A stretch of DNA of 64,000 nt from Candidatus Woesebacteria bacterium (GTDB lineage Bacteria > Patescibacteriota > Microgenomatia > UBA8517), in NCBI GenBank assembly GCA_016432365.1, contig CP066686.1:874918-938917 (forward strand), in the 5' to 3' direction. The notes beneath the pieces are model-generated. The model made no database searches, was not told the DNA's origin, and was given only the letters and a program-made list of their open reading frames with translations. How positions within the stretch are numbered: position 1 is the stretch's first letter; the number at the start of each line of letters is the position of its first letter. Below, one piece after another: positions 56,556-62,778 of the stretch. Made by a program: the position numbers and the translations under genes.

Positions 56556-57587
56556 CTATTTAAGTCTCGCTATATGCGCATCTACCATCATGGCAACTAA
56601 CTTTTTAAAAGTAGTTGTTGGTGTCCAGCCCAAGATCTTCTTAGCTTTTGCCGGGTTTGCGACCAACGGACCTGTTTCGGTCGGTCTAACAAATCTTTGG
56701 TCAATCTCTACATAATCCTCCCAATTTAATCCGACGTACTCAAATGCTTCCTCACAAAGCTCCCGAATCGTGTGGGTTTCCCCAGTCCCGATTACAAAAT
56801 CGTCCGGCTTAGGCTGTTGCATAATTAACCACATCGCCTCCACAAAGTCTCCCGTAAAACCCCAATCACGTTTAGCTTCTAAGTTCCCCAAAGCGACTTT
56901 TCCATTTTTGACAATCGGCTCCCCTTCTTCGTTCAAATGATCCGAGTTTTTGATCCCAAGCTTTGCTGCTGCTGCTGCGTAGGTAACCTTTTGCGTAACA
57001 AAATTCAAATGGCGTCTGGGAGATTCGTGATTAAAAAGTATTCCACAGGCTGCAAACATGTTGTAGCTTTCCCTATAAATTCTGGTCATAGAATGCGCGT
57101 AAAGTTTGGCTGCTGCATAAGGATTTGCCGGATTAAACGGTGTATCTTCACTCTGAGGAATTTCTCTAACCCAACCAAACATCTCGGAAGAGCTTGCCTG
57201 ATAGAACTTAGCTCGCGGAACCACATCCCAAACCGCATCAAGCACCCTGTGGGCGCCAAGAGCTGTAATTTCGGCAGTATGGATAGGTTGTTTAAAACTC
57301 TCCGCCGGGTGGCTCTGAGCTGCCAAATTGTATACCTCATCTGGCTGAATCTTTTGAATCGCCTCACGGAGTGACACAGGATCAAGAAGGTCTGCCTGAA
57401 TCAGATGAAGACGATCTTGAATATGGCCAATGTTGTCATAAGACATGTTGCTGCTTTTCCTGACAATCCCGCCTACAACGTCATATCCTTTTTTAAGAAG
57501 CAGTTCCGCCAAATACGAGCCGTCTTGACCGGTTATCCCTGTGATAAACGCCGTTTTGCTCTTGGGGCCCACCTTTTTCTTCGTCAT
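56556..57587 (-). CDS. gmd: GDP-mannose 4,6-dehydratase
   Basis: AFITGITGQDGSYLAELLL Rossmann motif; SDR catalytic region; 343 aa. Confidence 0.9.
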   Translation of the reverse strand: MTKKKVGPKSKTAFITGITGQDGSYLAELLLKKGYDVVGGIVRKSSNMSYDNIGHIQDRLHLIQADLLDPVSLREAIQKIQPDEVYNLAAQSHPAESFKQPIHTAEITALGAHRVLDAVWDVVPRAKFYQASSSEMFGWVREIPQSEDTPFNPANPYAAAKLYAHSMTRIYRESYNMFAACGILFNHESPRRHLNFVTQKVTYAAAAAKLGIKNSDHLNEEGEPIVKNGKVALGNLEAKRDWGFTGDFVEAMWLIMQQPKPDDFVIGTGETHTIRELCEEAFEYVGLNWEDYVEIDQRFVRPTETGPLVANPAKAKKILGWTPTTTFKKLVAMMVDAHIARLK

Positions 57588-57590
57588 GTG

Positions 57591-58622
57591 TCATATTTTA
57601 ATGATAATTATCAGTAAAATCCAGTGGACAATACTCAAGGGTTGAACCATTGAGTATGTTAAAAATGACAAAAGTGCAATTTTTTTGTTTATTTCAAGCC
57701 CAACAAATGTCTGATACAGAAATCCGAAAAATAAAATCAAGCCGACAATTCCGGACCACATGGTCACATCCAAAAACAAGTTGTGTGCGCGGTCAACTAT
57801 CAAATCCGATAAAGGAATGCCGCTCTTGACAAAAGCCTGATTAAAAACAAACTCACCGCTCTCCGCGCCGTAACCTAATATCGGTTTTTGTGAGATCTGA
57901 TTAACCGCCAGTTTCCAGATAATAGGCCTGTTTTCAAAAGGAGAAACCCCCTTTCCGATTGTAAAAATGTACAAAAATAAAACCATAGCCGGAATTAAAA
58001 CAATCAGAAAAGTTTTTTTTACGTTCCCCAAAAACGGAACTATTGCAAGAATTCCCGATCTTGATTGAGCCAAAAAAATTGTAAGAATAGGAACCAACAA
58101 TAATAATTTAGGGAAGGACTCAAAAACAAAATATGAACCGATTGCCAAAAATCCCGCTACCGCATTTGCCTCGCCAATTGTCCCAAGGGGGTGACCAAAA
58201 TATAATCTACCCCCAAAGAACTGAAAAATCACCACCACACATTCGATAAGAACCACTACTCCGACACTTTTAGTTAAAAGTTTTTTATGATCCTTATCGA
58301 GAAGTTCAACAGTTTTTCCGATCAACCATAAAGCAAGAAAAAAAATTACTCCCTCCTGTCTATAGCTTCCTCCCAAAAAAGATTCAAAAGGATGAATTCC
58401 GATAAAACTTGAGACTGAAAGGGTAAAAAGCCATGCAAGAAAAAAATAATCCGACTTGGAAAATGTAAAATATTTTTTGTATTTAAGCACCCTAAATATC
58501 CAAAAAATTATAAGCGGTACACTTCCTGTCAAAAAGTAGAAAACCTTTGGTCCTTCGTACAGACCTTTCCACACGACAAGGGGAAGCGCTGCTAAGTAAT
58601 AAATAAGGATGTCGTAAAGCAT
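57591..58622 (-). CDS. O-antigen polymerase/ligase-like polytopic membrane protein
   Basis: About 10 TM helices. Adjacent to gmd, consistent with surface-glycan synthesis. Confidence 0.45.
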   Translation of the reverse strand: MLYDILIYYLAALPLVVWKGLYEGPKVFYFLTGSVPLIIFWIFRVLKYKKYFTFSKSDYFFLAWLFTLSVSSFIGIHPFESFLGGSYRQEGVIFFLALWLIGKTVELLDKDHKKLLTKSVGVVVLIECVVVIFQFFGGRLYFGHPLGTIGEANAVAGFLAIGSYFVFESFPKLLLLVPILTIFLAQSRSGILAIVPFLGNVKKTFLIVLIPAMVLFLYIFTIGKGVSPFENRPIIWKLAVNQISQKPILGYGAESGEFVFNQAFVKSGIPLSDLIVDRAHNLFLDVTMWSGIVGLILFFGFLYQTFVGLEINKKIALLSFLTYSMVQPLSIVHWILLIIIIKI

Positions 58623-58705
58623 TACAATTAATTATATCCGATGCTTTTTTCTATTGTTTTGAAATAGCTATTGATAATAAATAATTACATGACTAATATT
58701 AATTA

Positions 58706-60547
58706 ATGGATTTTAAAACTAGGTTCAATTCTCTGCCTGTTTCAACCAAAAGACTTCTTGGAATAGGTGTTGTTTTGGCCCTTGCTGTTGCTCTCCCCCT
58801 CTTTATTTGGGCAATCATCACTCAAAGATTCCTTATTATTAAACGTGCTTCAAGTGGAGAACCAGGTGTTTGTCTGGCGCAAAATAAAGTTATTATTGTT
58901 ACTCCGGAATCTGACACGAATGGAACCTGTCACAATATTCAAACCGCGGTGGACGCAGTTACAGGTGACGGCTATACGGTTCAGATAGAACCCGGGACTT
59001 ACAACATAACATCAACAATTAACGTCAGCGGAAAAACAAACATAAATATTACCGGTAATTCACAAGCCGGCTCAGGTGCAGCCGTAATCAACTCAACTGC
59101 CGGTGGAGGGTGGGGATTCTTGGTAGACAGCTCATCCGGAACTATTCAATACCTTTCGATGCGGGGAGGAAGCTCAAACGGGATGTTAAGTGTAAAGAAT
59201 AGTAATAATTTTTCTGTAGCCTATACTAGCTTAAACTCTCAGTCATCTCACACTTTAGATGTTCAAGGATCAAACCATATCAGTATAATTAATAATGAAA
59301 TTGTAAGTTCCGCCGGAGCTGTTGAAGTTGGTACTTCGAACTATGTAAATGTAGCAAACAACAAGATCCACGACTCGGCAAACGCGATTTCGATCCATAA
59401 TTCTACAAATGTAAACGTGTTGGGAAATCTGGTTTACAATAACCGTGAATCGGGACTGACAATTAATGCTACCAACGGCTCAATTAGGCTTTTGAAGGTT
59501 AGCCACAATACTTTTGTAAACAACACCACAGGTAGTCCGAATTCTGCAACCATATTTTTGATAGGAAATTTCGGACGAAACCTGGAATTCAGTAACAACA
59601 TAGTTACTTCGAGTGTTGGGGCCGGAATTGACTCAAGAAGCAGACTCGCCTTTGATACATTTTCTTTCAACGATTTTTATAGAAATAACCCCAACTACAA
59701 ACAGTATCAAGTTATGACCGGAAGGTCGGGAAATATATCCGCTGATCCCCTACTCAATTCCGCCAACTTTATTTATTGTCCAAGTTCCAACTCTCCTGTT
59801 ATTTATGGAAACGTTGCAAACGGTAGATATATGGGTTACATGGGACCATGTGGGACAGCAACTCCAACCCCGACACCTACACCTACCGGAACACCCACCC
59901 CTACACCAACCGGATATCCCAGTCCAACACCCTCACCTTCGGCGACGCCAACGGCAACTCCGGGTGTGACTCCTCCCCCAACTGTAAGACCATTCGAAAT
60001 ATTGCTAAAGTTTGACGGTGTCACCGATGGTTCGGCTGACCTCGCAAAAGTAACCGTAAGGTTTATTAATTCAGCATTCGGCAACTCCCTTGGACTAACC
60101 ACACCGGCGCTCCCGGTCAATTATGTTGATAGTGGGGTCTACAGATTACCGTTTGGTGTTTGGTCATCCGACCTTGTCTCCCTTTCAAATTATTCGATTG
60201 TACTAAAAGGAGAAAAGCACTTGGGTGTAAAATTCTGCGCTCCAAGCGGACAAACAACTCATTGTTCAGGAAGTGAAACAGGAAGCATCTCGCTTCCCAA
60301 TGACCCGTTGCAAATGGTTTCCCTGGACTTTACAGGGATTTCTCTTCCCGCAGGAGACACTTATCCACAAGACGGAGTTGTCAATTCTGTCGACTACGAC
60401 AGAGTAAGAAGTTTATTTAGCAAACCGGATTCCGAATTAACAACTACTGACAAACTCACAGGCGACCTTAATTACGATGGGTTCATCGATATTAGGGATT
60501 CATTCCTAATTAGAAAAACATTAGGAACCAGATACGATGAAAATTAA
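58706..60547 (+). CDS. secreted right-handed beta-helix (pectate-lyase-like) protein with PT-rich linker and C-terminal dockerin-like module
   Basis: N-terminal signal-anchor. Parallel beta-helix repeats (NNEIVSSAGAVEVGTSNYVNVANNKIHDSANAISIHNSTNVNVLGNLVYNN). A TPTPTPTPTGTPTPTPTGYPSPTPSPS linker. C-terminal DLNYDGFIDIRDSFLIRKTL matches the dockerin Ca-binding repeat. Confidence 0.55.
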   Translation: MDFKTRFNSLPVSTKRLLGIGVVLALAVALPLFIWAIITQRFLIIKRASSGEPGVCLAQNKVIIVTPESDTNGTCHNIQTAVDAVTGDGYTVQIEPGTYNITSTINVSGKTNINITGNSQAGSGAAVINSTAGGGWGFLVDSSSGTIQYLSMRGGSSNGMLSVKNSNNFSVAYTSLNSQSSHTLDVQGSNHISIINNEIVSSAGAVEVGTSNYVNVANNKIHDSANAISIHNSTNVNVLGNLVYNNRESGLTINATNGSIRLLKVSHNTFVNNTTGSPNSATIFLIGNFGRNLEFSNNIVTSSVGAGIDSRSRLAFDTFSFNDFYRNNPNYKQYQVMTGRSGNISADPLLNSANFIYCPSSNSPVIYGNVANGRYMGYMGPCGTATPTPTPTPTGTPTPTPTGYPSPTPSPSATPTATPGVTPPPTVRPFEILLKFDGVTDGSADLAKVTVRFINSAFGNSLGLTTPALPVNYVDSGVYRLPFGVWSSDLVSLSNYSIVLKGEKHLGVKFCAPSGQTTHCSGSETGSISLPNDPLQMVSLDFTGISLPAGDTYPQDGVVNSVDYDRVRSLFSKPDSELTTTDKLTGDLNYDGFIDIRDSFLIRKTLGTRYDEN

Positions 60548-61589
60548 ATTTTTTCTTAAAACTTTATTTGTTTCCTGCCTTTTTTTTGTGGCAAGCGGAC
60601 TTACAGGTCAGGTTTACGCAGCCCCCAGAATTTATTTTGAGCCTGCAACATACTCCACTTCTAAAAACACGGATTTCCAAATAAATCTTAAAATTGACGT
60701 TGAAAGCAAATCTTCAACAGGCGCAAAAGTTACTCTGAACTTTCCGTCTGACACCATAACTTTTAAAGATCCTGCAAACGGAGGGTTTTTTAGTGATTTT
60801 TCATTTTCCCGAAGCGATGGGAAAATTGTAATCAATGCCCAACCGGCATTGGGAGATAGTAAATCAGGAAACGGAACTTTGGCTGTTTTGACTTTAAATT
60901 CAAATAAAGACACAGGAACCGGAGCAGTTAGCATCACCTGTTCAGGGAGTGGCAACGATAGTTTTATTCTTGATTCAACTGGCGCAAACATCTTGGATTG
61001 CGGATCTATCAATCAATTGAGCCTTACCTACTCTTCAAGCAGCTCTGGTGGAAATTCCGGAGACGGGCCAACAAACGCCTGTGGAGGAACTTGCGGAAGT
61101 GTATACAATTGCAATTCCGGACTATTCTGCTATCAGGGTTTTTGTAGAAACCCGGATTGCCGAACAGACTTGACCTGCGGTTGCAAAAGTCCTACACCTT
61201 CGCCTTCTGCAAAACCCAAGACTCCGACTCCAACAATAAAACCGTCGTCGACCCCCACAGTCGTGACTCTAACCCAATTTACTCCGTTACCTTCATCTAC
61301 TCCTTCGGCCACACCGGTTTCTAGTGGTAGCGGATCAGGTCTAAACCTGCAAAGTGTGGCTCTTTGGGCTGGACTAGGGATCTTGGGCCTTGCTATATTG
61401 TTTGCCATTATCGGGATGATCAAAAGCAGAAATAAACCGCCCAAAATAACTCCTCCGGAAACAACAACGACGACGACAACCACAACCGAAGTGACCACAC
61501 CTTCATCCCTCAATACTCCGCCTGAGCCGCCGGCTGTTCCACAACCACCACCCATGCCTCCAGTCGAACCCCCTCCTGCCACTTTTTAA
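60537..61589 (+). CDS. membrane-anchored cohesin-like beta-sandwich protein with Cys-rich module and Pro-rich C-terminal tail
   Basis: Signal peptide. A beta-rich roughly 140-aa module (RIYFEPATYSTSKNTDFQINLKIDVESK...GTLAVLTLNS...) of cohesin-like composition. A Cys-rich knot, TP linker, TM helix (ALWAGLGILGLAILFAIIGMI) and Pro-rich tail. The ATG overlaps the upstream stop (ATGAAAATTAA). Confidence 0.35.
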   Translation: MKIKFFLKTLFVSCLFFVASGLTGQVYAAPRIYFEPATYSTSKNTDFQINLKIDVESKSSTGAKVTLNFPSDTITFKDPANGGFFSDFSFSRSDGKIVINAQPALGDSKSGNGTLAVLTLNSNKDTGTGAVSITCSGSGNDSFILDSTGANILDCGSINQLSLTYSSSSSGGNSGDGPTNACGGTCGSVYNCNSGLFCYQGFCRNPDCRTDLTCGCKSPTPSPSAKPKTPTPTIKPSSTPTVVTLTQFTPLPSSTPSATPVSSGSGSGLNLQSVALWAGLGILGLAILFAIIGMIKSRNKPPKITPPETTTTTTTTTEVTTPSSLNTPPEPPAVPQPPPMPPVEPPPATF

Positions 61590-61652
61590 ATTTCCGATTT
61601 TTGTGTTAAAATGGAAACCAAGAAAGATAGGTGATTTTATCAGACTATAAAA

Positions 61653-61847
61653 ATGTTCATACTCAAAAAGAATAAAGGCGAAAGCGATGACAAGCTAATT
61701 GCCCGCTTCCGCAAAAAAACCATTGTAGAAGGTGTAATGCAAGAATATCGCGACCGCGAACACTACAAAAAACCTTCTGAAAAAAGGAAAGAGGCCAAAT
61801 ACAGGATTGCCCACTCTATTGAATTGGAGAAAAAGAGGCACTTCTAA
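61653..61847 (+). CDS. rpsU: 30S ribosomal protein S21
   Basis: ...LIARFRKK...EYRDREHYKKPSEKRKEAK..., the S21 pattern; 64 aa. Confidence 0.7.
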   Translation: MFILKKNKGESDDKLIARFRKKTIVEGVMQEYRDREHYKKPSEKRKEAKYRIAHSIELEKKRHF

Positions 61848-61865
61848 TTTTGCATAGCAAAAATT

Positions 61866-61976
61866 AAATTCGAAAATCCAAATCCGAAATTCGAAACAGT
61901 CCTCAAGTTCCAAAGTTTTAAATTTGGAACATTTTTGATTTTGAATTTGTTTAGGATTTCGGATTTCGTGCTTCGA
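61866..61976. repeat. interspersed repeat element, family A, copy 2 (inverted relative to copy 1)
   Basis: The reverse complement aligns with 17560..17672 over about 110 bp. The core tttgtttaggatttcggatttcgtgcttcg equals the reverse complement of 17566..17595. Confidence 0.7.
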
Positions 61977-62778
61977 GTTTAGAACTCCAAGTGTTGACGA
62001 AGGCTTTTCTGTGTAATTTGGTCATTCCATGTTTTTTGATGGCTTTTTGATGTTCTTTTGTGCCGTAACCCTTGTTTTTACCCCATTTGTAAATCCTGAA
62101 TTTTGAATTATTTGATAATTTTGTCATCAAACTATCTCGATAAACTTTAGCTATAATTGAGGCCGCCGCGATTGAAATTGATTTCGTGTCCCCTTTGACA
62201 ATCGCCTTCTGATTTCTACGTCTTAAACCCTTTACATAAGGTATGTAAAAAGCATCTATTAGAAGATAGTCAATCGAAGTCTGATGTGAGAAATTTGAAG
62301 TTTGAATAGGAAATATGAATTTAGAATTATGAATTTTGAGTTTTCGGGCCTCAGACTTCATTTTTCGAACTTCGTTATCCCGCTTCGCTTCTCTGTCTTC
62401 CAAATTCTTACTGGCCACTTTGATCGCCAATCGGAAAGCTATCTCACTCGCCTTTTTGGTCCCAAATTTATTTATCTGAGCAACACTCGCCTGACCAATT
62501 CCAACTGCGAGTGCGTTTTCCCTTATCCACTTATCCGCGATCTCTCTTTGTTTCGGAGACAGTCGCTTTGAATCATTGATAATTATCTGATTATTTGCAT
62601 ATTTGCTTTTCAGCGCAGCTGACGACATTCGCTTATTGAAGACGGCGCATCCGGCTACAACCGGACCTGCAAAACAGCCCCGGCCCACCTCGTCTACTCC
62701 GGCAACGGTTTTAAAACCTCGTTTCCAAGCTTTTTTTTCGAAAGAGAAATCCGGTAATTCCATTTGTCGTTTTTTCAT
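61951..62778 (-). CDS. rnhB: ribonuclease HII with about 50-aa internal insertion
   Basis: GVDEVGRGCFAGPVV and DSK catalytic motifs. An extra low-complexity segment (NLEDREAKRDNEVRKMKSEARKLKIHNSKFIFPIQTSNFSHQ) is encoded by repeat-like DNA at 62288..62400. Confidence 0.8.
   Translation of the reverse strand: MKKRQMELPDFSFEKKAWKRGFKTVAGVDEVGRGCFAGPVVAGCAVFNKRMSSAALKSKYANNQIIINDSKRLSPKQREIADKWIRENALAVGIGQASVAQINKFGTKKASEIAFRLAIKVASKNLEDREAKRDNEVRKMKSEARKLKIHNSKFIFPIQTSNFSHQTSIDYLLIDAFYIPYVKGLRRRNQKAIVKGDTKSISIAAASIIAKVYRDSLMTKLSNNSKFRIYKWGKNKGYGTKEHQKAIKKHGMTKLHRKAFVNTWSSKLEARNPKS
62288..62400. repeat. family-A-related repeat fragment inside the rnhB coding sequence
   Basis: aaatttgaagtttgaatagg...tttttcgaacttcgttatcccgcttcgcttc shares the ttcgaa(t/c)ttcg...gcttcg blocks with family A. 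Confidence 0.45.

Follow-up and report, generated by a model that had tools for sequence, protein, structure and literature searches.

Two overlapping genes of a Candidatus Woesebacteria bacterium, here called A and B, probably encode a non-cellulosomal module in which one cohesin and one dockerin mount variable cargo on the cell surface. Both genes lie in the 64,000-nucleotide stretch of contig CP066686.1 that we analyzed (assembly GCA_016432365.1, positions 874,918 to 938,917; hereafter, the window), and the assignment of a cohesin-dockerin pair is supported as far as domain identity and genetic coupling go. Candidate Phyla Radiation (CPR) bacteria, or Patescibacteria, to which Woesebacteria belong, are thought to depend on contact with other cells, and their surface machinery is mostly unannotated. 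Our literature search found no paper linking Woesebacteria with cohesins or dockerins. An earlier reading of the window, made from its sequence alone, had described the pair as cellulosome-like and had placed it in a genome of otherwise reduced metabolism. The latter remark fits a CPR host, but the likeness to a cellulosome extends to the plug-and-socket principle only, and the pair is not itself a cellulosome: whereas a cellulosome has a multi-cohesin scaffoldin, a carbohydrate-binding module (CBM) and cargo of plant-cell-wall glycoside hydrolases (GH), B has one cohesin, there is no cellulase, and a Pfam search of both proteins at E<=10 returned neither a CBM nor a GH family.

Genes A and B meet at a conserved junction

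The two open reading frames (ORFs) are exactly those of the sequence-only reading in coordinates, strand and length (Table 1), though the junction between them differs from what had been described. The start of B had been placed inside the stop codon of A; instead, A ends in TAC GAT GAA AAT TAA, and the ATG of B falls within GAT-GAA, the Asp-Glu codons, 8 nt before TAA. The resulting overlap, ATGAAAATTAA, is 11 nt long. At 18 distinct loci, the two genes overlap by 11 nt in nine cases, by 14 nt in six and by 8 nt in one, and a 1-nt spacer separates them in two, which argues that the start of B is built into the conserved Y-D-E codons at the C-terminus of A. Both A and B have full-length homologues, at 39-87% identity, and with these and the recurrence in 18 distinct loci the gene pair is far beyond chance.

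A is identical to P0027, a Candidatus Woesebacteria protein that NCBI calls only 'right-handed parallel beta-helix repeat-containing protein', and the searched collections hold no name for those B relatives that were looked up. The identical A is present in a collection of 15 billion proteins, but the exact 350-aa B was not found there, and P0001 (328 aa), which represents the cluster closest to B, has a later start codon. Gene callers seem to mis-set the start of B owing to the overlap. A promoter and terminator scan of 58400-61900 gave counts no higher than those in shuffled sequence.

Protein B is predicted to present a cohesin on an anchored stalk

B has the layout that the sequence-only reading gave it, with a signal peptide, a beta module, a Cys knot, a Pro/Thr (PT)-rich linker, a transmembrane helix and a Pro-rich tail. 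To place these parts we used an alignment of 14 sequences (A1), made up of the window protein and 13 full-length homologues of the same architecture. An AlphaFold2 (AF2) model of aa 28-170, built from this 14-sequence alignment, is all-beta and of high confidence (pLDDT 91.6, pTM 0.86). When the model was compared with the PDB by Foldseek, ranks 1-42 were all cohesins, with E-values down to 4e-10, TM-scores of 0.63-0.81 and, for the best matches, a root mean square deviation of ~2.1-2.4 Å. The top matches are type I cohesins: CaCohA2 (6kgf; E 4e-10, TM-score 0.80), AcScaB Coh6 (5nrm), CipC (1g1k) and OlpC (4dh2). An archaeal non-cellulosomal cohesin (2xdh) and Clostridium perfringens cohesins stand at ranks 10, 19, 24 and 28. 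The predicted structure has the cohesin jelly-roll fold, and the cohesin assignment that the sequence-only reading had ventured from composition, and would have given up had no cohesin-fold match appeared, therefore held up.

By sequence, membership of the Cohesin family appears to hold only through transitive homology. Pfam Cohesin (PF00963) is reported at E<=1 in 10 of the 14 family members, the orthologues P0004, P0009, P0011 and P0014 pass its gathering threshold (26.1-29.1 bits vs 24.1), and more distant relatives of B, found by the family profile, reach 30-50 bits. Among PDB sequences neither of the cohesin profiles (A1, A2) matched a cohesin, and the relationship is visible by fold comparison alone. 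Single-sequence phmmer searches of PDB sequences with A and B likewise gave nothing significant (best dockerin match, E 0.19), and NCBIfam returned no informative family for A, B or the Wzy_C-family gene next to them.

Conserved features run through the whole of B. The mature protein begins with AAPR(L/I)YF(D/E)P, the cohesin contains an invariant Cys pair (C135, C155), and a Ser/Gly linker connects it to a module whose eight Cys (aa 182-216) are invariant in 14 of 14 sequences. The tail carries conserved PPKI(T)PP and C-terminal PPxxPP..F motifs and is flanked by K/R residues. The eight-Cys module matched no Pfam family. We considered a likeness to CBM1 (CGG..C.SG..C), but Pfam CBM_1 gave no match at E<=10 and we make no such claim. 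Copies of this module (CGGTCGSxYNCxSGLFCYQGFCRNPxC...) that are 65-80% identical occur in many small surface proteins rich in PT (P0015-P0026), with two in tandem in P0015; some of these proteins end in a transmembrane helix and others in sortase-like signals (LPNAG, LPDAG, LPSAG, LPETG, LLQTG). It seems to be a stalk module shared widely by surface proteins of the Patescibacteria type.

Protein A ends in a beta module and a divergent dockerin

The last 72 residues of A are strongly conserved among homologues, and they contain DLNYDGFIDIRD (aa 587-598), a canonical 12-residue Ca2+ loop in which the sequence-only reading had recognized a dockerin repeat. In agreement with that assignment, Pfam Dockerin_1 (PF00404) matches A with 21.9 bits (E 2e-4) over profile positions 6-56 of 57, covering both repeats. 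Syntenic orthologues score 16.6-22.3 bits, and 26 of 90 members of the wider family match at E<=1e-3 (best, 3e-10); by these scores the family appears to be a divergent one, near the Pfam threshold. A profile of 28 homologous C-termini (A3) was more decisive when searched against PDB sequences. Its top matches were solved dockerins, at E-values of 4e-6 to 1e-3 and spanning both repeats, among them 6kg9_A (4e-6), 8x39_A (5e-6), 2ccl_B (1.8e-5; positions 9-65 aligned with 5-59), 1ohz_B (2.9e-5) and 5nrm_B (5e-5). Calmodulin, in contrast, was matched at E 0.65-0.82, so the C-terminus of A can be told apart from a generic EF-hand, the alternative that the sequence-only reading had named. The full-length A profile also matches the dockerin part of three chains that consist of an X module plus a dockerin (2b59_B, 4u3s_B, 3kcp_A).

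A model of aa 428-613 (AF2, 27-sequence alignment; pLDDT 89.8, pTM 0.86) has eight strands and then three helices (at model residues 134-141, 153-159 and 169-179), with the three-helix module packed on the beta module. A thus has the two-repeat, three-helix dockerin architecture, both in the profile alignment over the two repeats and in the helices of the model, and the high pTM for a two-domain piece suggests that beta module and dockerin form a rigid unit, much as X module and dockerin do in type II/III systems. The beta module, ~120 aa long and conserved, with an invariant Cys pair (C511, C520), had been missed by the sequence-only reading, whose other parts of A were borne out: the putative signal-anchor (aa 17-38), the beta-helix and the PT linker (aa 384-427). 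Foldseek against the PDB gave no significant match for this module (best E 0.013, TM-score <0.35, to transthyretin-like sandwiches), and Pfam had no match for it.

Asymmetric dockerin repeats imply a single binding mode (PMC13487519). The two repeats of A differ, so by analogy its dockerin may bind in a single mode rather than a dual one. Most orthologous dockerins carry a Cys in the inter-repeat linker (KPC) and another at position 7 of loop 2 (DYNGC), which presumably form a disulfide. In the clade of the window (the window, L005 and L006) the corresponding residues are Asp and Phe (aa 578 and 593; 60437-60439 and 60482-60484); both Cys have therefore been lost together.

If cohesin-like and dockerin-like folds had simply been reused, the sandwich of B could be a module for adhesion or glycan binding and the end of A a Ca2+-stabilized structural cap, with no contact between the two. 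Both window sequences do score below Pfam gathering, loop 1 of the dockerin is degenerate, and the cohesin jelly-roll resembles many CBM and adhesin folds, with pilin and adhesin domains among the lower-ranked Foldseek matches. However, the top 42 structural matches are exclusively cohesins, and the E-values of the dockerin profile are about five orders of magnitude better for dockerins than for EF-hands. A binding pair, moreover, predicts strict co-inheritance of both modules with varying cargo, as is seen in related loci. We consider such reuse quite improbable.

The pair is conserved while its cargo is exchanged

The cohesin alignment, scanned against species-representative genomes and metagenomes, yielded 20 loci, and contig look-ups yielded more, for 25 sources in all. 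At each locus, hidden Markov models (HMMs) of the cohesin (A2) and the dockerin (A3) were run against all six-frame ORFs. A dockerin-ending ORF lies directly upstream of the cohesin ORF in 22 of the 22 sources with upstream DNA (16 distinct pairs); the other 3 contigs begin at the cohesin gene. Two more distant pairs, L029 and L030, adjoin alanyl-tRNA synthetase, not S21/RNase HII, yet they retain the 11-nt overlap. Their second gene encodes a signal peptide, a cohesin (A2 HMM, 1e-24 and 9e-54), a PT linker, a different stalk domain, a transmembrane helix and a Pro tail. With these included, the dockerin gene directly precedes the cohesin gene at 18 of 18 distinct loci with upstream DNA.

Constant connectors joined to variable cargo are a hallmark of dockerin-borne proteins. 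In the upstream gene the N-terminal hydrophobic motif, the beta module and the dockerin are constant, and the middle varies: it is a beta-helix in the window, L005 and L006, a beta-helix plus PKD in L001 and NPCBM_assoc/NEW3-like in L017 and L018, with no recognizable domain in L002, L004, L010 and L021. A HMMER search of 1.84 billion representatives with the beta-module-plus-dockerin profile found at least 150 clusters at E<=1e-30. Among those listed, the match reaches the C-terminus or comes within a few residues of it, in proteins of 86-923 aa. Pfam, run on 90 of them, reported Beta_helix in 9, NosD in 8, NPCBM_assoc in 6, Cohesin in 6 (adaptor-like), PKD in 4, CARDB in 3, and GH16 and CHRD in 1 each; most of the 90 had no Pfam cargo match. 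In the window protein, Beta_helix (PF13229) covers aa 162-309 with 41.5 bits (gathering 25.9; E 1.3e-10), NosD also matches (E 1.3e-4), and the nearest solved relatives of the A family profile are mannuronan C5-epimerases (E 5e-5). This cargo most likely binds or modifies polysaccharide.

Alternatively, A and B could have genuine dockerin and cohesin domains without being cognate partners: B would receive other dockerins, or the dockerin of A would bind another cohesin or a neighboring cell, and adjacency would reflect co-regulation of envelope genes. Our view is limited to 64 kb of the genome; related genomes contain loci with several cohesin and dockerin genes, including a cohesin-plus-dockerin adaptor (L027/L028), and 6 of the 90 beta-module-plus-dockerin proteins also carry a cohesin. 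Cross-species as well as promiscuous cohesin-dockerin binding is documented (PMC13487519). Against this, adjacency with start/stop overlap is invariant in the 18 distinct loci (junctions as given above), two of which lie in another genomic context, and the window holds one cohesin and one dockerin, with no second copy of either. We therefore think it unlikely that A and B are not partners.

Several records deserve separate mention. In L012 (4432-4896) the B protein is the same as in L005/L011, yet the dockerin ORF upstream of it has just 155 aa, with no Gmd or Wzy_C gene (see below) detected upstream; it could be a truncation, a rearrangement or an assembly artefact. L006, L008 and L010, three MAG records titled 'uncultured Gammaproteobacteria bacterium', carry the Woesebacteria-type locus, L006 with 86% identity to the window cohesin and the same neighbors, and their labels are probably wrong. 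In L027 (1054-5657) and L028 (164-6451), distant relatives of the B cohesin (P0091, P0097) end in LPxTG-type sortase signals. These clusters of four to five genes encode several cohesin and dockerin proteins, including a 388-aa Cohesin + Dockerin_1 protein (adaptor-like) and a Pur_ac_phosph_N-plus-dockerin protein, and they represent more elaborate small cohesin-dockerin systems of other uncultured bacteria.

The N-terminus of A may export it or hold it in the membrane

The sequence-only reading had called A an exoprotein, which is uncertain, as its N-terminal hydrophobic segment may remain a membrane anchor. Residues 17-38 form a 22-residue hydrophobic stretch preceded by K/R residues, within a motif (aa 1-53, window 58706-58864; P0100-P0131) that reads ...(R)FKSLPxxT(K/R)RLLxLGIVxALxVALPLF(I/V)WA(I/V)xTQRFxxRK(R/K)A(A/S)(S/T)GEP and is common to family members with unrelated cargos. 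Such conservation is unusual for a plain Sec signal peptide, and hints at a dedicated processing step or a transmembrane partner for the segment. We also considered a Tat signal. S/T-R-R-L-L occurs only in some homologues, with KR, RK, TR and KQ as frequent variants; for want of a conserved twin arginine, the Tat hypothesis was rejected.

These features raise the possibility that the domains and their binding are as we propose, but that A is never released: tethered both by its own transmembrane helix and by B, it would be part of a fixed membrane heterodimer, possibly with contact between the two transmembrane helices and a role for the tail of B. The conservation of the N-terminal segment across cargos goes far beyond that of ordinary signal peptides, 12 further residues separate its 22-residue core from the sole plausible small-residue site (A-S-S|G), and the motifs of the B tail are conserved. 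On the other hand, (K/R)A(A/S)(S/T)GEP could equally be a signal-peptidase site. Moreover, three proteins (P0016, P0017 and P0019) have the same N-terminus before a protein with a C-terminal transmembrane helix, which fits a cleaved signal as well as a hairpin. A permanently tethered A is possible, but on balance we doubt it.

A model for surface display

From the gene structure, the domain identities at the level of fold and profile, the conserved coupling and the exchange of cargo that we establish here, we propose that A and B work as a one-to-one plug and socket. B would leave the cytoplasm by means of a cleavable signal peptide and remain in the membrane through its C-terminal helix, with the cohesin at the far end of the disulfide-rich Cys-knot and PT-rich stalk, away from the membrane. 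A would be exported via its conserved N-terminal hydrophobic segment, and its beta module and dockerin would plug into the cohesin of B, 1:1 and in a Ca2+-dependent manner, in a single orientation given that the repeats differ. The beta-helix would then bind or modify polysaccharide at the surface; in other species the beta module and dockerin carry different cargos. The tight gene overlap would favor equimolar synthesis of A and B. The binding of A to B is something we infer, as we do the Ca2+ dependence, the topology, the activity of the cargo and the cleavage of the A N-terminus.

Several further observations weigh against this model. The Dockerin_1 score of A misses the gathering threshold by a small amount (21.9 vs 22.9 bits), and Pfam Cohesin gives the window B only 9.6 bits (E 1.4), far below its threshold of 24.1. 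The first Ca2+ loop of the dockerin, GDTYPQDGVVNSVD (GD-TYPQDG-VVNSVD), is atypical: it contains an additional residue and lacks D/N at position 3. Among known X modules nothing matches the beta module, and we claim no homology to them. A may stay anchored rather than be released, given the length and unusual conservation of its N-terminal segment, and further dockerins or cohesins may lie beyond the 64-kb window, in a genome that measures at least 1.08 Mb, the length of the contig with gene A. Taking these points together with the evidence above, we still regard a cargo-mounting module of one cohesin and one dockerin as the probable function of the pair.

The modules involved are small and well predicted, so that A and B form a directly testable pair, and possibly a new orthogonal cohesin-dockerin pair for protein engineering. 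More broadly, a conserved cohesin-dockerin chassis offers a handle on at least 150 clusters of surface proteins that are otherwise uninterpretable.

Genomic neighborhood and collapsed loci

Upstream of the pair and divergent from it are genes for a Wzy_C-family membrane protein, a GDP-mannose 4,6-dehydratase-like enzyme (Gmd; 374 bits on TIGR01472, below the cutoff of 415) and a major facilitator superfamily transporter; downstream are S21, RNase HII, SecE and NusG. The gene order is the same in most related loci. Wzy_C is missing in L018 and L020, and is therefore not obligatory for the pair; the Gmd and Wzy_C neighbors may be linked to it without being required. The Wzy_C family includes protein O-oligosaccharyltransferases, so the two genes might serve to add glycans to the PT linkers of A and B. 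Among the downstream genes, that for RNase HII encodes a long homologue, with a Pfam match in two stretches and a Lys/Arg/Glu-rich insertion at ~aa 115-165.

Table 1. Features of the A/B locus and its neighbors (window coordinates; str., strand).
Feature	Position	Str.	Basis or remark
Gmd, GDP-mannose 4,6-dehydratase-like gene	56556-57587	-	Pfam GDP_Man_Dehyd 1.1e-113
Wzy_C/O-antigen-ligase-family membrane protein	57591-58622	-	Pfam Wzy_C 2.6e-11
Gene A	58706..60547	+	ORF list; 613 aa; cargo protein: signal-anchor, beta-helix, PT linker, X-like beta module, putative dockerin
N-terminal hydrophobic segment (aa 17-38), then KRASSGEP (aa 46-53)	58754..58864	+	Export signal or signal-anchor
Right-handed parallel beta-helix cargo (aa ~55-382)	58868..59851	+	Pfam Beta_helix, NosD
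Pro/Thr-rich linker (aa 384-427)	59855..59986	+	
Beta-sandwich module (aa 428-547)	59987..60346	+	Alignment, AF2; X-module-like in position, directly before dockerin
Divergent two-repeat dockerin (aa 548-613)	60347..60544	+	Pfam, profile, AF2 model
Dockerin loop 1	60353-60394	+	Atypical
Dockerin loop 2	60464-60499	+	Canonical, DLNYDGFIDIRD
11-nt A/B overlap	60537..60547	+	A's GAT GAA AAT TAA vs B's ATG AAA ATT AA
Gene B	60537..61589	+	ORF list; 350 aa; predicted type I membrane protein with one cohesin
Signal peptide (aa 1-28, ...GQVYA|AP)	60537..60620	+	Read from sequence
Cohesin module (aa 29-167)	60621..61037	+	AF2, Foldseek, Pfam on family
Eight-Cys knot module (aa 181-216)	61077..61184	+	Alignment A1
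Pro/Thr/Ser-rich stalk (aa 218-273)	61188..61355	+	
Transmembrane helix (aa 274-295), then KSRNK	61356..61421	+	Position conserved in A1
Pro-rich tail (aa 296-350), predicted cytoplasmic	61422..61586	+	Topology from positive-inside rule
RNase HII homologue	61951-62778	-	275 aa

Collapsed versions of the locus occur in L026 (5001-5534, P0016) and L025 (1079-1690, P0017), and P0019 is of the same kind. In L025 and L026 one short gene takes the place of the pair. In these genes the N-terminal motif of A is joined directly to the Cys knot, stalk, transmembrane helix and Pro tail of B, and cargo, dockerin and cohesin are all missing. L026 also lacks Wzy_C and Gmd; L025 keeps Gmd and has short ORFs only at the Wzy_C position. 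Each looks like a deletion that took out cargo, dockerin and cohesin together. This joint loss is consistent with the three forming one unit, and with the A N-terminus acting as an export signal.

On a wider interpretation, the pair would form the core of a host-contact device with swappable cargo, common to the whole lineage of Woesebacteria-type bacteria. Its constant chassis would consist of the N-terminal transmembrane segment of A, the beta module and dockerin, the B cohesin on its stalk and the Pro-rich tail of B, and fast-evolving, species-specific cargo would choose the host or substrate glycan. A would be held at both ends, the B tail would be coupled to a cytoplasmic partner, and Wzy_C and Gmd would glycosylate the PT stalks. 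Taken as a whole, chassis included, this is speculative and we would not expect it to prove right.

Comparison with known cohesin-dockerin systems

The system closest in logic to A/B is that of the adjacent genes clcD (dockerin) and clcC (cohesin) of Cellulosilyticum lentocellum (Clole_2598/2599), whose products were shown experimentally to form a heterodimer (PMC13487519). Like A/B, that system consists of a single dockerin protein and a single cohesin protein; their genes lie side by side in the same orientation, the dockerin gene first, and the dockerin repeats are asymmetric. In contrast to A/B, ClcD carries a GH5 cellulase and ClcC carries CBM3 and X2 with no cell anchor, which makes for a cell-free system, and the genes are ~40 bp apart with separate ribosome-binding sites rather than overlapping by 11 nt. 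A and B combine beta-helix cargo and no CBM with a membrane-anchored cohesin on a Cys-knot/PT stalk, in a CPR host.

A/B also belongs with the cohesins and dockerins that occur outside cellulosomes (Peer et al. 2009, cited in PMC9012536), exemplified by Archaeoglobus fulgidus (2xdh) and Clostridium perfringens (2jh2, 2vo8, 2w1n), which, as far as that account goes, are single modules with variable partner domains, no cellulose degradation and no multi-cohesin scaffoldin. Within the same account they are not described as a conserved overlapping gene pair, and they lack the transmembrane/Cys-knot anchor and the pre-dockerin beta module of A/B. With anchoring scaffoldins (C. thermocellum SdbA/CipA, 2b59; R. 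flavefaciens ScaE/CttA, 4iu3), A/B would share a cell-bound single cohesin that receives a dockerin behind a rigidly packed beta module, and its dockerin repeats are likewise asymmetric. Those scaffoldins, however, are anchored by SLH domains or sortase rather than by a transmembrane helix; the cohesin of B is structurally nearest to type I (TM-score 0.80), not to type II/III (0.70-0.76), and the beta module is unlike known X modules.

Among Patescibacteria, envelope proteins with dockerins have been noted in Saccharibacteria; one of them, SEML1_0315 of Southlakia epibionticum, was reported to be essential, and targeting of host-cell glycans has been speculated for it (PMC10633639). It is like A in being a dockerin-bearing envelope protein of a Patescibacterium, but it belongs to another lineage and no cohesin partner is mentioned in that paper. 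What sets A and B apart from the known cohesin-dockerin systems is the CPR host, the transmembrane/Cys-knot-stalk anchor, the unmatched beta module, the gene overlap and the turnover of cargo. With them, the one-cohesin/one-dockerin principle (PMC13487519) would extend beyond cellulolytic Firmicutes.

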